The translations under genes and the position numbers were made by a program. Below, in pieces: positions 1 through 7,298 of a stretch of DNA of 7,298 bases. The stretch lies in IMG/VR virus record IMGVR_UViG_2582580984_000004; one strand, 5' to 3'. The notes below the pieces were generated by a model, which worked only from the letters and a program-made list of their open reading frames with translations, searched no databases and was not told the DNA's origin. Within the stretch, counting starts at the first letter, position 1, and every line of letters begins with the position of its first letter. The stretch is from a virus (Duplodnaviria > Heunggongvirae > Uroviricota > Caudoviricetes).

Positions 1-1
1 G

Positions 2-340
2 GCGTCTCCAGTAGAGTGGCTGACGGATAATGGTTCATGCTACCGGGCTAATGAAACACGGCAGTTTGCCCGGATGTTGGGGCTTGAACCGAAGAACACG
101 GCGGTGCGGAGTCCGGAGAGTAACGGCATAGCAGAGAGCTTCGTGAAAACGATAAAGCGTGACTACATCAGTATCATGCCTAAACCAGACGGGTTAACGG
201 CAGCAAAGAACCTTGCAGAGGCGTTCGAGCATTATAACGAATGGCATCCGCATAGTGCACTGGGTTATCGCTCGCCACGGGAATATCTGCGGCAGCAGGC
301 CAGTAATGGGTTAAGTGATAACAGGTGTCTGGAAATATAG
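2..340 (+). CDS. insD: IS2 transposase OrfB (InsD), C-terminal part; 5' end lies outside the window
   Basis: The frame is open from position 2 ([35 protein letters not shown]...) with no stop until TAG at 338-340. The ORF track shows only 74-340 because it starts at the first Met. The DDE-integrase C-terminal signature HPHSALGY is present. Confidence 0.9.
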
Positions 341-351
341 GGGCAAATCCA
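311..351. repeat. IS2 right terminal inverted repeat
   Basis: Terminal ~41 bp ending ...ggggcaaatcca at 351; base composition drops abruptly to AT-rich immediately after 351. Confidence 0.75.
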
Positions 352-574
352 GAGTATGACCAATGCTAATTAGTTCAATATTTCCGTTTATGATTGGGCT
401 AATGCATTTTTTTACAGCCCCTAAGTCATTGCAATATTTAGAGATCACTTCTATGAGTGATGGTGTCGTAATGGATAATTTGAATTGATCTATAGGGGAG
501 TTAATTATTTTTTGGTTTGTCGACAGACCAACTAGTGAGTAAAGAATATTTGTATCAATTATCATCCTGCTCAT
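352..574 (-). pseudogene. AT-rich gene fragment truncated by IS2; N-terminal 74 codons of a putative PIN-domain (VapC-like) protein
   Basis: ATG at 574-572 is preceded by AAAGGAG with ~7 nt spacing. Translation MSRMIIDTNILYSLVG...TTPSLIEVISKY has the PIN-like N-terminal IDTN motif (Asp7) and a Glu at ~42 in an S/T-x-L-x-E-hydrophobic context. The frame continues without a stop across the IS2 junction at 351 and ends inside the IS2 repeat at 311, so the last ~13 residues are IS-encoded. Low GC (~30%) versus ~50% elsewhere. Confidence 0.45.
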
Positions 575-773
575 ATAAATGCTCCTTTTTGAACGGTTGA
601 TTATTGTTATATCACATATCAATGCGCATTAGCATAGTGATTGTATTGTAACGTCCGCTTCTGGCACAAAGCGGACAACCACGCCAGATCTACCCTGTGC
701 CATGAAAAATGAGAATGTCAATTCACTCCTGAACTAATGCTTTTTAATCTAGTAACGTCTAAAATACCTAACA

Positions 774-1175
774 TTATCCCTGATAAAATGCCAGTATGCG
801 CTGCATAACTTCACTCATCCGGCACTCGCGACAGATTATGTTTAGGCGACTGTCGTAGCGACGTATTTCTCCATCAGGTAACGACCAGATAAGGTCCGGA
901 TCAACCACAGCTGTTTTCTTCACCTTTGCCCTCGATAGTTTTTTGCGGGCGTTTTGCCAGTCCTTACGCGCCTGTTCAGACGGGAATAACCCGTAGCCGG
1001 AGTTGTATACATCGCCACTGGCTACCAGCTCTCTGGCAAGAACGCTCATCAGATATCTAGTCGCACCTGTTTTAGCTTCCAGTTGCCGTAACGTCTCACG
1101 ACCGCTCTGGCGCACGAGTTCCACCACCTGCCCTTTAATTTTTTCCCGCTCTTCTTGTGTAAAAACTTTTGCCAC
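774..1175 (-). CDS. hypothetical protein, 133 aa, last gene of the minus-strand replication operon
   Basis: ORF-track entry; GTG start at 1175-1173 preceded by AAGGGGGA; 40-bp gap from the upstream initiator gene; no family recognised from sequence. Confidence 0.55.
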   Translation of the reverse strand: MAKVFTQEEREKIKGQVVELVRQSGRETLRQLEAKTGATRYLMSVLARELVASGDVYNSGYGLFPSEQARKDWQNARKKLSRAKVKKTAVVDPDLIWSLPDGEIRRYDSRLNIICRECRMSEVMQRILAFYQG

Positions 1176-1215: not shown

Positions 1216-2181
1216 TTATCCTCTGAAACCAGGCGGAATTTCTGTATCCGGTTCAGAAATATGATTCATACAACGCTGTACAGGTGAACGTCCCAGGCGG
1301 ATGACCAGTTCGTCCCATTTTTCGCGGAGTTTTGACGGGCTCATGATGTTTTTTACCCAGAATTGATCTCGCTGTACCCGACCAAACATTTCGCAAATTT
1401 GTCTGTGGCTTCTGCCATCCAGCATCCGCATTGTGCGCACGTCATTGGCCCAGGCTGTCCAGTTAGGCTCTTTTGGTCGCATGATCTCTCCATCGTCGCT
1501 GGCAGCCTGTTCGTAAAGGTTCACGATCCGCCCCCAAATCCACTGCGCACACGCCAAATCCTCCCTGCTACCCCACTGGCGTTTTTTCGCACTAAACACA
1601 ACCGCGTCGGGGTTCCGGGTTAAAAAATCCTGTTCAGCGGTCTGCGGGTCCGGTTGCGAAGCTTCCGGACGAAAAGTGTTTTTATTCTCTGTAGTAATCT
1701 CTGTTGTATTCTCTGTAAGATCATCAGGCCATTTTGACCCGATGACATTGGGTCGTTTTGAACCAATGGAGCGTTTCATTTTGACCTCTTCCATCGTGTC
1801 ATTTTGACCTGATGGAGCGGCGCATTTTAAACCGATGGATTCGCTCAATTTGCCACCATCTAAAAGCTCGCTCCCGTAGTTGATCGTGTAGAAATTGGTC
1901 ATATCGCGCTTTGATTTATTGAGCTTTTCACAACGCAAAAGCCCCAGCGTTTTCAGACTTGCAAACGCGCGCTTTAACGTTGACTCTGACCAGAATGGGA
2001 ACTGTTCCAGCCATTGTTCCGTTGTGTTGTAAATCCAGCGAACACCATCACATTCCATGCCGGAATTGGTATCTCTCAACCAGTAATGCAACTGCTGCAA
2101 CACAATGGCTTCATTTAAGCCAATCTTCATCGCAAGCTGTGTGTTTATAACCAGTGGGCGTTCAGCAAAAAGAAGGCTCAT
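1216..2181 (-). CDS. phage replication initiator (lambda O-like replisome organizer), 321 aa from ATG at 2181
   Basis: N-terminal winged-helix-like region (LNEAIVLQQLHYWL...IYNTTEQWLEQFPFWSESTLKRAFASLKTLGLL) typical of phage replisome organizers. The middle of the gene carries tandem iterons, as the lambda O gene carries ori-lambda. The ORF track starts at a TTG at 2235; the ATG at 2181 with a GGATGGAA upstream is the more plausible start. Confidence 0.7.
   Translation of the reverse strand: MSLLFAERPLVINTQLAMKIGLNEAIVLQQLHYWLRDTNSGMECDGVRWIYNTTEQWLEQFPFWSESTLKRAFASLKTLGLLRCEKLNKSKRDMTNFYTINYGSELLDGGKLSESIGLKCAAPSGQNDTMEEVKMKRSIGSKRPNVIGSKWPDDLTENTTEITTENKNTFRPEASQPDPQTAEQDFLTRNPDAVVFSAKKRQWGSREDLACAQWIWGRIVNLYEQAASDDGEIMRPKEPNWTAWANDVRTMRMLDGRSHRQICEMFGRVQRDQFWVKNIMSPSKLREKWDELVIRLGRSPVQRCMNHISEPDTEIPPGFRG
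1729..1842. repeat. five tandem ~22-bp iterons (consensus tcATTTTGACCnGATGGagcg) inside the initiator gene; putative prophage ori
   Basis: Repeat copies begin near 1729, 1754, 1776, 1799 and 1821; the third copy carries CCATC in place of GATGG. Adjacent at 1686-1721 are three 12-bp repeats (TCTCTGT-nnnnn) in an AT-richer stretch. Confidence 0.65.
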
Positions 2182-2683
2182 AATTCCATCCAGCTTTTTG
2201 TTGGTATTGCTGTCGATACGCAAGTTTGAAAGCAATTGCTTTTTCTATAAGTTCGTCAGTTTCACGATCCACTACGGCAGGATCAGCAAAAAGCAGTCCG
2301 GACTCCACCACATCGCCATATTCTTTGTTTAACCCGGCGATCATGTACGTGATGCTTTTTCCGTCACTAATTTCACGATACAACCTGAAATCATTAATCC
2401 GGATAGCCTCCATAATTGCAGGCACTAGCGCCGTGAACTTTTCACGCTTATCCCTAGTGTCGATAGCCTTCCAGCGTTCGAATATCTTCACTCGATTAAC
2501 GCCAAGCGCTCGCTGATCAACCGCGCCACCTTCATCTGTGACACGCTGAACATCGATGTTCGGGCGCTCTTTCAAAGCCCAGAATGCTTCAGTGATTAAT
2601 ATCGTCGCCTGCTCCTGTGTCATTCCTGGTCGACATATCCAGGCATCCAGAGCCTCACGAGCCTGTTCAGGAGTGATTTTCAT
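2162..2683 (-). CDS. hypothetical protein, 173 aa, between the Cro-like gene and the replication initiator (the position occupied by YdaT/CII-type genes in related prophages)
   Basis: ORF-track entry with ATG at 2683-2681; overlaps the end of the upstream gene by 17 nt and the start of the initiator by 20 nt, a compact operon layout; no family recognised from sequence. Confidence 0.55.
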   Translation of the reverse strand: MKITPEQAREALDAWICRPGMTQEQATILITEAFWALKERPNIDVQRVTDEGGAVDQRALGVNRVKIFERWKAIDTRDKREKFTALVPAIMEAIRINDFRLYREISDGKSITYMIAGLNKEYGDVVESGLLFADPAVVDRETDELIEKAIAFKLAYRQQYQQKAGWNYEPSFC

Positions 2684-2894
2684 TGTTCAACCGCCCCGCC
2701 CGCTTCGTCTTACGATATTCGTCATAAACCTTGGGATCATACAGAAGCTCGCCGCCAGATGCCTCCTGTAGACGCATCGCGCGACCTTCAGGAACCAGCT
2801 CTTGCCATTGAGAAACAGCAGATGGGTCAACGCCAGCAGCTTTCGCTACTTTGGCTTTCGTACCGTAAAAATTAATTACGTCTGATTTAAACAT
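2667..2894 (-). CDS. dicC: Cro-type small DNA-binding regulator (DicC/YdaS-like), 75 aa
   Basis: ATG at 2894-2892 preceded by a strong SD (GGAGGT, ~4 nt spacing). Divergent from the DicA-like repressor across a ~77-bp operator region. The ORF-track start at 2921 is a TTG extension and lacks an SD. The symbol is assigned from position and size, not from a confirmed sequence match. Confidence 0.7.
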   Translation of the reverse strand: MFKSDVINFYGTKAKVAKAAGVDPSAVSQWQELVPEGRAMRLQEASGGELLYDPKVYDEYRKTKRAGRLNNENHS

Positions 2895-2971
2895 CGCACC
2901 TCCAATATTGAGTTTTCTCAATGCTAATCACTCAAGGAATCTCAAGTCAAGGGTTATTAAGATATCTAAAT
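2895..2971. promoter_or_regulatory. divergent control region between the dicC-like and dicA-like genes, with operator-like repeats
   Basis: Inverted-repeat operator ATTGAG-tttt-CTCAAT at 2907-2922; CTCAAG direct repeats at 2931-2936 and 2941-2946, plus TCAAGG at 2947-2952; candidate -35 TTGACT (minus strand, 2950-2945) for the leftward promoter. Confidence 0.55.
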
Positions 2972-3379
2972 ATGAACGAGAAAACTTTAGGTCAACGCAT
3001 TAGAGAAAGACGTAAGCAGGTAGGCTTAAGTCAAAACGGTTTAAGCAAAGCTGCTGGCGTATCTGGCTCATCAATTTCATTATGGGAAAGTGACCATACA
3101 GCCCCGCGCGGGCAAAATTTGCATCGCCTCGCCGAGGTATTGCAATGTTCACCAACCTGGATACTGTTTGGCGACGAGGACAAAACACCAGCTCCCCCTG
3201 TTTCACTCGATAGTGCCTTAGACTTATCGGAAGATGAGTTAGAGATGCTGCGTTTGTATCGCGCACTTCCTAAATCAGAGCAACAAGCACAACTCAGCGA
3301 ACTCCGCGCCCGCGTTGAGAATTTTAATCGCCTGTTCACCGAGCTATTAGAGGCTCGCAAACGCAACAAGCATCAATAA
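2972..3379 (+). CDS. dicA: DicA-like HTH (XRE-family) prophage repressor, 135 aa
   Basis: Translation MNEKTLGQRIRERRKQVGLSQNGLSKAAGVSGSSISLWESD... has a classical XRE helix-turn-helix. It sits immediately upstream of a ydfA-dicF-dicB-ydfD array and divergent from a Cro-like gene. The ORF-track start at 2921 would leave no intergenic space, so the ATG at 2972 is preferred; no obvious SD precedes it. Confidence 0.8.
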   Translation: MNEKTLGQRIRERRKQVGLSQNGLSKAAGVSGSSISLWESDHTAPRGQNLHRLAEVLQCSPTWILFGDEDKTPAPPVSLDSALDLSEDELEMLRLYRALPKSEQQAQLSELRARVENFNRLFTELLEARKRNKHQ

Positions 3380-4545: not shown

Positions 4546-4603
4546 TTTCTGGTGACGTTTGGCGGTATCAGTTTTACTCCGTGACTGCTCTGCCGCCCTT
4601 TTT
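4546..4603 (+). ncRNA. dicF: DicF small regulatory RNA (antisense regulator of ftsZ), about 53 nt plus U-tail
   Basis: Sequence tttctggtgacgtttggcggtatcagttttactccgtgactgctctgccgccc-ttttt matches DicF as I recall it; it lies just upstream of dicB as in Qin and ends in a GC-stem plus U-run terminator. Ends are approximate. Confidence 0.75.
4561..4603 (+). terminator. DicF 3' intrinsic terminator
   Basis: GGCGG (4561-4565) pairs with CCGCC (4593-4597), with an inner CAGT/ACTG pairing, followed by cTTTTT (4598-4603). Confidence 0.65.
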
Positions 4604-4772: not shown

Positions 4773-4961
4773 ATGGAAACGTTATTACCAAACGTTAATA
4801 CGTCTGAAGGTTGTTTTGAAATTGGTGTCACTATCAGTAACCCTGTATTTACTGAAGATGCCATTAACAAGAGAAAACACGAACGGAAGCTATTAAATAA
4901 AATATGCATTCTTTCAATGTTGGCCCGTTTACGTCCGATACAAAAAGGATGCTGGCAATGA
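4773..4961 (+). CDS. dicB: DicB cell-division inhibitor (MinC-dependent), 62 aa
   Basis: ATG at 4773 preceded by GAGGA (4761-4765, 7 nt spacing). Translation METLLPNVNTSEGCFEIGVTISNPVFTEDAINKRKHERKLLNKICILSMLARLRPIQKGCWQ matches DicB in length and, as far as I recall, in sequence. The ORF-track start at 4668 is an upstream extension. Confidence 0.8.
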   Translation: METLLPNVNTSEGCFEIGVTISNPVFTEDAINKRKHERKLLNKICILSMLARLRPIQKGCWQ

Positions 4962-5149
4962 ATACAGCATTTGCACTTGTTCTGACAGTTTTTCTTGTTT
5001 CCGGAGAGCCAGTTGATATTGCAGTCAGTGTTCACAGGACAATGCAGGAGTGTGTGACTGCAGCAACCGAACAGAAAATTCCCGGTAACTGTTACCCGGT
5101 CGATAAAGTTATTCACCAGGATAATAACGAAATCCCGGCAGGTCTTTAA
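4958..5149 (+). CDS. ydfD: YdfD-like small membrane protein, 63 aa
   Basis: ATG at 4958-4960 overlaps the dicB stop (ATGA, translational coupling); hydrophobic N-terminus MNTAFALVLTVFLVSG; size and position match ydfD of Qin. Confidence 0.7.
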   Translation: MNTAFALVLTVFLVSGEPVDIAVSVHRTMQECVTAATEQKIPGNCYPVDKVIHQDNNEIPAGL

Positions 5150-5241: not shown

Positions 5242-7298
5242 ATGAGTAAAGTCTTTATTTGCGCCGCCATTCCGGACGAACAGGCAATAAAGGAAGAAGG
5301 TGCCGTCGCTGTAGCCACTGCCATTGAAGCCGGTGATGAACGTCGCGCCCGCGCAAAATTTCACTGGCAATTCCTGGAGCATTATCCGGCTGCTCAGGAC
5401 TGCGCTTATAAATTTCTTGTCTGCGAGGATAAACCCGGTATACCCCGCCCTGCCCTCGATTCCTGGGATGCTGAATATATGCAGGAAAACCGCTGGGATG
5501 AGGCGTCTGCTTCCTTTGTCCCGGTCGAGACTGAATCCGATCCGATGAACGTCACTTTTGACAACCTAGCCCCTGAAGTACAGAACGCTGTCATGGTTAA
5601 GTTCGACACATGTGAAAACATCACCGTTGATATGGTTATTAGCGCACAGGAATTGTTGCAGGAAGACATGGCAACATTCGACGGACATATCGTTGAAGCG
5701 TTGATGAAAATGCCAGAAGTTAACGCCATGTATCCGGAGCTTAAGTTGCACGCCATTGGGTGGGTTAAGCATAAATGTAAGCCTGGTGCCAAATGGCCCG
5801 AAATTCAGGCAGAGATGCGCATCTGGAAAAAACGTCGCGAAGGTGAACGCAAGGAAGCCGGAAAATACACGTCTGTTGTTGATCTCGCCCGCGCCAGAGC
5901 CAATCAACAGCACACTGAAAATTCAACAGGAAAAATCAACCCGGTCATTGCTGCCATTCATCGCGAATACAAGCAGACATGGAAAACACTGGATGACGAA
6001 CTGGCCTACGCTCTCTGGCCTGGTGATGTGGATGCCGGAAACATTGACGGCAGCATCCATCGCTGGGCAAAAAATGAAGTTATCGACAACGACCGCGAAG
6101 ACTGGAAGCGTATCTCGGCATCAATGCGCAAACAGCCTGATGCCCTTCGCTACGACCGCCAGACTATTTTTGGCCTTGTCCGTGAACGTCCGATCGACAT
6201 TCACAAAGACCCTGTGGCACTGAACAAATACATTACTGAATACCTGACTACAAAGGGCGTGTTTGAAGATGAAGGAACAAATCAGAGCGCAACTGATACT
6301 CTCTCGTCGCCAGTACCAGAAACTGATGCAGTGGAAACGGCAATTCCGGGCAACGAAAAAACCGAATGCAAAGTGGAAGTCGAACCATCTGTAGAGCGTG
6401 AGGGGCCGTTCTACTTCCTCTTCACCGACAAGGATGGCGAAAAATACGGTCGCGCAAACAAACTTTCTGGTCTGGAAAAAGCACTAGCCTTGGGAGCTAC
6501 GGAAATCACAAAAGAGGAATACTTCGCACGTAAAAACGGCACGTACTCAGGTTCACAACAAAATACTGGTGCATCTGACACGACCGCACAACCAGAGCCG
6601 GTAAAAGTTACCGCTGACGAAGTAAACAAAATTATGCAGGCAGCCAATATCAGCCAGCCTGACGCCGATAAGTTGCTTGCTGCCTCTCGCGGAGAATTTG
6701 TTGCAGGGATTAGCGACCCGAATGATCCGAAATGGGTAAAGGGGATTGAAACCCGCGATTCTGTAAACCAGAACCAGCAAGAAACGGAACAGAACGACCA
6801 GAAAGCGGAACAAAACAGCCCAAATACGCAACAAAACGAGCCAGAAACGAAACAACCTGAGCCAGTAGCGCAACAGGAACCGGAAAAAGTCTGCACCGCC
6901 TGCGGTCAAAGCGGTGGCGGCAACTGCCCTGATTGTGGCGCGGTGATGGGTGACGCAACATACCAGGAAACATTCGATGAAGAGAATCAGGTTGAAGTTC
7001 AGGAAAATGATCCGAAGGAAATGGAAGGCGCTGAACATCCACACAAGGAGAATGCTGGTAGCGCTCAGGATCACGCCAGCGATAGTGAAACTGGCGAGAC
7101 GGCAGATCCCTTAATTACGATGAACGGTCATCACGTTATCACATCCACCAGCAGGACGTGTGACCATCTAATGATCGACCTTGAAACCATGGGAAAAAAT
7201 CCTGATGCCCCGATTATCTCAATAGGTGCAATATTTTTCGATCCGCAAACCGGAGATATGGGACCGGAATTTAGTAAGACTATCGATCATACCCCGCC
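5242..7298 (+). CDS. large RecE-like / YdfE-like prophage recombination-exonuclease protein, N-terminal 685 codons (3' end outside window)
   Basis: ATG at 5242 preceded by GAGGT (5228-5232); the frame is open to the window end. Contains a segment [31 protein letters not shown] that I associate with RecE-family N-terminal regions, a Q/E/N-rich low-complexity linker, a CxxC-x8-CxxC zinc ribbon (6883-6927), and at the end [10 protein letters not shown]...[10 protein letters not shown], resembling exonuclease motif I of DnaQ/DEDD 3'-5' exonucleases. Not in the ORF track because no stop occurs within the window. Confidence 0.8.
   Translation, partial: [685 protein letters not shown]

Follow-up and report, generated by a model that had tools for sequence, protein, structure and literature searches.

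An IS2 element interrupts the gene of the single-protein anti-phage defence system DS-3 in an Escherichia coli prophage

The window, that is, the whole 7,298-nucleotide stretch analysed here (IMG/VR virus record IMGVR_UViG_2582580984_000004), opens with the end of an IS2 element that is directly followed by a truncated gene on the minus strand. We conclude with high confidence that this gene fragment is the IS2-disrupted 5' stump of DS-3, a single-gene defence system. IS2 transposed into the DS-3 gene at codon 74/75, duplicating 5 bp. The gene is already published and validated, and the insertion of IS2 into a known gene is an ordinary event.

An IS2 end abuts a truncated AT-rich gene

The features around the insertion site, in window coordinates, are as follows.

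1-351, plus strand: right-hand 351 bp of IS2, with the 3' part of the transposase gene orfB and the terminal inverted repeat
311-352, minus strand: read-through tail of 13 codons from the IS2 terminal repeat and a TAA at 313-311, from the translation
352-356: one copy of the target-site duplication, GAGTA on the plus strand and TACTC on the gene strand
353-574, minus strand: native codons 1-74 of DS-3, covering PIN strands β1-β3 and identical to the intact allele (WP_022645725.1)
582-587, minus strand: Shine-Dalgarno sequence AAGGAG, read from the sequence, with a 7-nt spacer to the ATG
640-667, minus strand: candidate σ70 promoter GTGCCA-16-TACAAT, a consensus match only
653-676: intergenic inverted repeat GTCCGCTT-N8-AAGCGGAC, overlapping the promoter-like site
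774-1175, minus strand: DUF977 (YdaW-like) gene, PF06163, annotated, at the end of the prophage replication module

Positions 1-351 of the window were 100% identical to many E. coli copies annotated as IS3-family/IS2 transposase. The 3' portion of orfB corresponds to the ORF at 74-340, with Pfam rve_3 detected on the called gene, and the terminal repeat at window position 351 reads ...GGGGCAAATCCA. We take both terminal ends of the element to be those of IS2, in line with the annotation. In uninterrupted prophage alleles, homology to the window begins precisely at 352. Together with the identity to annotated copies, this confirms the IS2 end that the preliminary description had placed at 351.

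The GC content of positions 352-574 was 33.2%; the IS2 part has 52% and the remainder of the window 47%. The minus-strand ORF occupies 311-622, with its ATG at 574-572, and its product is MSRMIIDTNILYSLVG...SIGHT (74 native codons) followed by 13 IS2-derived residues. The same 87-aa product was called by the gene caller on the source scaffold. The codons of two catalytic residues lie in the window, those of D7 at 556-554 and of E42 at 451-449. The AT-rich segment, the Shine-Dalgarno sequence, the ATG at 574, the frame that stays open to the junction and the 13 codons read from IS2 had all been described beforehand, and all were borne out by the sequence. The site had also been placed beside the prophage replication module, and the DUF977 gene is indeed the last gene of that module; the candidate promoter is located within the 198-bp intergenic region after it.

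Both IS2 junctions carry the same 5-bp repeat

The source scaffold (GCA_000692515.1 KK736343.1, locus L002), recognised by an exact match to the 87-aa product, carries the other IS2 junction. In the parts that were compared, the gene and the IS2 end, the window is the reverse complement of L002, and from the gene coordinates it is expected at L002 3277-10574. The ends of IS2 in the scaffold are TGGATTTGCCCCTAT... and ...GGGGGCCAGTCTA. On the gene strand, ...GGTCATACTC is joined to TGGATTTGCCCC... at the proximal junction and ...GGGGGCCAGTCTA to TACTCCAATCTC... at the distal junction, and the uninterrupted allele reads GGTCATACTCCAATCTC at the insertion site. TACTC abuts both IS2 ends (L002 10219-10223 and 11679-11683) and was found once at the insertion position in the uninterrupted allele. 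This marks it as the target-site duplication, whose length of 5 bp is the one expected of IS2. Thus, the far junction and the duplication, whose recovery had been proposed as a check, were both found on the source scaffold. The terminal inverted repeats and the 5-bp duplication are shared with insertional inactivation by IS2 (IS3 family) in general, and nothing about this case is unusual.

The junction could instead be an artefact of assembly or scaffolding, with the gene intact in the organism. Position 1 of the window borders an assembly gap within IS2, the N run of the scaffold starts right beyond it (L002 10575-11406), and the exact IS2/gene junction was absent from the complete E. coli genomes in the collection. 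The continuity of the two IS2 ends is supported by the scaffolding and the matching 5-bp repeat, the interior of IS2 being represented by Ns. The IS2 span of 1455 bp in the scaffold is a gap estimate, compared to a length for IS2 that we take to be 1331 bp. However, in both contigs the unique sequence of the gene passes without a break into the correct terminal repeat of IS2, and a pentanucleotide present at both ends and single in the intact allele is the signature of a real IS2 transposition rather than a product of mis-assembly. An artefact is thus very unlikely, and we treat the insertion as genuine.

Removal of IS2 restores a 340-aa protein identical to DS-3

Joining the two flanks in silico had been suggested in the preliminary description. 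When IS2 and one copy of TACTC were removed, the flanks rejoined in frame to give a 340-aa protein identical to WP_022645725.1; the translation of the distal flank equals residues 76-340 of the intact protein with zero differences. WP_022645725.1 is DS-3 (working id PIN8) of the DefensePredictor paper (Science 2026, doi 10.1126/science.adv7924, PMC13092281). Residues 1-74, encoded in the window, and 76-340, encoded beyond IS2, match the 340-aa sequence in Table S8 of that paper. DS-3 is a validated one-protein anti-phage system that is active against T4, RB69 and Candy, with -log(EOP) values of 3.5, 5.6 and 4.7, respectively, in the screen (Table S7, PMC13092281), and its defence is abolished by the D7A or the E42A mutation (Table S11, PMC13092281). 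It has no cognate antitoxin, and the protein may be auto-inhibited until infection (PMC13092281). The fragment had been guessed to come from a moron or defence gene, and the intact protein is experimentally anti-phage and depends on these two acidic residues.

The window copy shares with DS-3 the 340-aa reconstruction, the split PIN domain, D7 and E42, and the lack of an antitoxin. It differs in that IS2 cuts it after codon 74, leaving 74 native residues encoded, and it is presumably inactive. A single intact ORF with both PIN halves is absent here, the product of the window being 87 aa. Judged by its sequence, the window copy is a disrupted allele of the DS-3 family and not a working member.

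The intact protein is predicted to be a PIN nuclease with a split catalytic domain

In the published HHpred analysis, residues 1-75 of DS-3 matched VapC20 (probability 0.91) and residues 276-327 matched PIN_VapC-like (PMC13092281). We modelled the intact protein with AlphaFold2 using 20 homologues (pLDDT 90.5, pTM 0.85). The model has four short strands (residues 3-6, 32-36, 67-69 and 309-312) amid helices, and a long all-helical region from residue 78 to ~290-305. One half of the PIN domain, β1-β3 with D7 and E42, falls in residues 1-77, and the other, with N293, D294, D297 and D315, in residues ~287-340. The predicted fold appears to be that of a PIN domain: an α/β/α arrangement around a parallel central sheet that can be superimposed on known PIN domains.

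Across 78 family members (16-49% identity), D7, E42, E108, N293 and D297 were invariant. T8, N9, Y12, Y170, D294 and D315 were at least 90% conserved, with D294 present in 75 and D315 in 76 of the 78. D7, E42, D294/D297 and D315 match the four acidic positions of PIN domains: D7 lies in the IDTN motif of β1, E42 in the xxE motif of the helix after β2, D294 and D297 in the KNDxxD motif at the start of the ND-helix, and D315 in the TLD motif after the last strand. The first two conserved acidic positions had already been recognised in the fragment; they are D7 and E42, both invariant and both required for defence (PMC13092281). The PIN fold and the acidic tetrad had been named as points to check in the reconstruction, and they were recovered as the AlphaFold2 fold, the invariant D7, E42 and D297, and the nearly invariant D294 and D315.

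Profile searches pointed in the same direction for part of the family. PF01850 was matched individually by 35 of the 78 diverse members (E ≤ 0.01, best 1.3e-7) and PIN_12 by six. When a profile of 35 members with the insertion deleted was compared with the PDB, eight of the nine matches at E ≤ 1 were PIN proteins (VapC toxins and PcrIIC1); the VapC structures were matched at E values of 0.0019-0.5, of which the best, 0.0019, is marginal but consistent. The E. coli protein gave nothing significant in Pfam, PADLOC, PHROGs and NCBIfam scans, PADLOC gave nothing meaningful on the 78 family members, and the full-length family profile gave only noise against PDB sequences. No significant Foldseek match was obtained in BFVD and the PDB, because the helical insertion splits the PIN core. 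Collectively, the model and the conserved residues support the assignment of the intact protein as a PIN nuclease whose catalytic domain would be split by a helical insertion of ~210-230 residues.

The helical insertion, which is not part of the canonical PIN core, contains the invariant residue E108 and the nearly invariant K104 and Y170 (alignment A2, WP_022645725.1 numbering). These residues could belong to a site that senses the phage or acts as a gate, and so controls the PIN active site, or could contribute an extra active-site residue.

The study that validated DS-3 did the same for DS-5 and PIN_12 (PF16289) defence proteins, which are PIN nucleases too (PMC13092281). DS-5 consists of two genes, has its PIN_12 domain contiguous at the N-terminus and is described as not closely related to DS-3 (PMC13092281). 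The six DS-3 family members that match PIN_12, the domain of DS-5, do so weakly.

DS-3 is not a VapBC module

The gene had been described as VapC-type. The PIN core in that description stands, by fold and acidic residues, whereas the toxin-antitoxin type does not, since the protein is 340 aa long with a split PIN domain and no antitoxin. VapC toxins (PF01850; for example Rickettsia felis VapC2, 3zvk; M. tuberculosis VapC26, 5x3t; and Shigella VapC) are ~130 aa, contiguous and paired with VapB. DS-3, unlike these, has a helical insertion between β3 and the ND-helix, in which E108 is an additional invariant residue, and it is not paired with another gene.

A reading of the fragment as an IS2-truncated toxin from a classical VapBC type II toxin-antitoxin module would account for its N-terminal M-x-IIDTN motif with D7 and E42, which is VapC-like, and for VapC toxins being the closest structures. 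However, with an insertion of ~210-230 residues that spans positions ~78-286 or beyond, the intact protein is far from a compact PIN-only toxin of ~130-150 aa. An antitoxin ORF is absent both upstream and downstream, and no adjacent co-oriented antitoxin gene was found. Positions 575-773 of the window hold no plausible ORF and none of at least 60 aa, only a 30-aa TTG ORF, in agreement with the earlier remark that no antitoxin-sized ORF lies upstream (623-773). The neighbours vary across all homologous loci examined, and the single gene gives defence with no cognate antitoxin (PMC13092281). A VapBC origin is thus most improbable, and the fragment is better explained as part of the stand-alone DS-3 gene.

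The disrupted allele is presumably null

In a Rac-like lambdoid prophage, DS-3 is AT-rich cargo carried immediately downstream of the replication module. The intact protein would be auto-inhibited, probably via its inserted helical domain, until infection by T-even-type phages, and the activated protein would then cleave RNA and stop phage growth. RNA is the substrate suggested by analogy with VapC, and we infer auto-inhibition or sensing as the role of the inserted helical domain. After the IS2 insertion, the gene encodes an 87-aa fragment without the C-terminal half of the active site, and the other 265 codons are parted from the promoter, D7 and E42. Neither fragment holds all of the active site, and a single substitution is enough to abolish defence, so that the IS2-disrupted allele is very probably null for defence.

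It may be argued that a functional product remains, with a role in defence or regulation: the N-terminal fragment of 87 aa or a C-terminal one started from IS2. Both fragment ORFs are open and were called as genes, the C-terminal one as 280 aa (L002 11641-12483). Yet the catalytic residues are divided between the two fragments, half in each, either D7A or E42A alone abolishes defence (PMC13092281), and the N-terminal fragment is without strands β4 onward and the whole insertion. We consider a residual function highly improbable and favour a null allele.

The source strain should count as DS-3-negative despite the presence of both gene halves, and the 87-aa and 280-aa 'hypothetical proteins' on its scaffold are insertion artefacts. 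The discovery value of the insertion is small: DS-3 is already described and validated, and IS disruption of prophage cargo is routine. The family survey provides context for work on the DS-3 mechanism through its ~154 clusters (50% identity) and the conservation of E108 and Y170, and also through carriage by P2-like, P4-like and Rac-like elements and recurrent inactivation.

Other inactivated DS-3 alleles

In E. coli 806883-9-2019 (L017, NZ_CP099754.1, 1694-2999), a different IS3-family element is inserted in DS-3 at codon 112/113. The ends of the element read TGAACCGCCCCGGG..., and it is accompanied by a 3-bp AGG duplication; we take its terminal repeats to be IS629/IS1203-like. As this IS3-family insertion is independent, DS-3 has been knocked out by an IS at least twice.

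In FUJ80154 (L018, NZ_AP024687.1), an A9 tract at gene nt 730-738 (codons 244-246) is shortened to A8, a frameshift by which the gene falls into two annotated CDSs. By annotation signature, two further complete genomes (H104 and H105) have a 1022-bp two-CDS pattern like that of FUJ80154. A related cluster (P0002) has a compensated double frameshift in the region of the A9 tract. The A8 allele could reflect real slipped-strand inactivation or a long-read homopolymer error, and the A9 tract could be a slipped-strand on/off switch. That DS-3 is costly or self-toxic, and is hence repeatedly switched off in E. coli lineages, is a doubtful if possible explanation.

Distribution and surroundings of the intact gene

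Of 5426 complete E. coli genomes, 72 have the DS-3 gene at ≥99.9% identity, in every case on the chromosome. The 5' gene segment of the window and the intergenic region were 100% identical in these 72 genomes, in most of which the gene is 1023 bp long, uninterrupted and annotated as encoding a hypothetical protein. Since the 5' segment recurs as the start of this 1023-bp gene, the truncated ORF is not a chance ORF. A search of related prophages for uninterrupted alleles had been advised, and these genomes supply them.

Three E. coli loci were examined (FDAARGOS_497, 806883-9-2019 and the source scaffold), and in each the gene lies between DUF977 and hokD-rem-ydfU-rusA-Q. The DUF977 gene at these loci belongs to a Rac/Qin-like early region.

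The family comprises 26 clusters at 90% identity in a set of 5.8 billion proteins. In a set of 1.84 billion clusters at 50% identity, 154 representatives matched at E ≤ 1e-3, and nearly all of these are full-length at ~340 aa. A search of GTDB species-representative genomes gave five loci only. With DS-3 as tblastn query, plasmids gave no match and phages matched only at a fragment of P2-EC48. The P2-EC48 Z-region ORF1 (AJ512681) is 62% identical over residues 22-340 and carries the annotation 'putative lysogenic conversion protein' in a 2003-era style. Its annotated start is later, the first ~21 residues were unmatched, and this Z/fun cargo occupies another mobile element and locus than the DS-3 copy. 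P2 Z/fun is a well-known variable site and defence hotspot, and variability at P2 and P4 loci has been described (PMC9122126). The homologues outside E. coli were located as follows.

Enterobacter hormaechei: P2-like prophage, within tail-fibre/invertase cargo, with a 1275-aa SIR2 protein encoded 3 kb away
Serratia liquefaciens: adjacent to a P4-like satellite with primase, AlpA, Ash and Ogr/Delta
Proteus terrae: adjoining a PRTase/NADAR pair and a Gabija-like AAA_15-TOPRIM/UvrD pair
Gilvimarinus: flanked by transposases
Chlorobiales MAG: adjoining an unrelated small PIN gene

No neighbour gene was conserved family-wide among the homologous loci examined. The P2-like, P4-like and Gabija-adjacent positions are typical defence hotspots.

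A convergent ORF of ~95 aa (MTSPELNAIGLISNILGVILIFFFGLPQP...) accompanies DS-3 in Enterobacter, Serratia and Proteus; its product has two hydrophobic segments that probably span the membrane. The copies are located at:

L010 1974-2261, L013 1597-1887 and L014 2844-3092, minus strand: ~95-aa convergent ORF
L001 4811-5100, plus strand, outside the window: remnant of this ORF in the E. coli prophage, frameshifted and stopped (pseudogene)

None was present among the ORFs listed at the distant homologue loci (Gilvimarinus and the Chlorobiales MAG). As a required partner of DS-3, this ORF was rejected: it is a pseudogene in E. coli, was not seen in the distant loci and is dispensable for defence (PMC13092281).

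In the E. coli prophage, hairpins of the form GTCCGCTT-N8/9-(A)AGCGGAC flank an AT-rich DS-3 cassette of ~1.7 kb on both sides. Similar hairpins are located at:

window 653-676: the intergenic inverted repeat listed above
L001 4595-4618: in uninterrupted alleles, on the far side of the DS-3 cassette
L001 6302-6325: a further similar hairpin

These hairpins may be terminators or recombination scars. They were also considered as general cassette boundaries and rejected, as Enterobacter has a single copy of GTCCGCTT...AAGCGGAC, ~3 kb away from DS-3, and no copy occurs at the other loci.

Other features of the window

The gene for the sRNA DicF lies at 4547-4598 on the plus strand (Rfam RF00039, 76.7 bits). 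It is followed downstream by dicB (~4773-4961) and a DUF1482 gene (~4958-5149), as placed from converted gene calls on the scaffold. Taken together, DicF, dicB and DUF1482 assign the early region of this prophage to the Qin/Rac dicB type.

At its right end, the window seems to break off within a called recE-like exonuclease gene (686 aa, ~5242-7298). Past position 7298, another exonuclease fragment was called separately, so that the exonuclease gene too may be interrupted, or left unassembled, at this point.

A YdaT-family 'toxin' gene (2162-2683, minus strand) and a Cro-like gene (~2667-2894, minus strand) are divergent from an HTH repressor gene (2921-3379, plus strand). The repressor is 152 aa here and annotated as 135 aa (408 bp) in reference genomes, so the assigned starts differ. 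Window positions 2162-3379 are a typical Rac ydaS/ydaT/racR-like immunity region.
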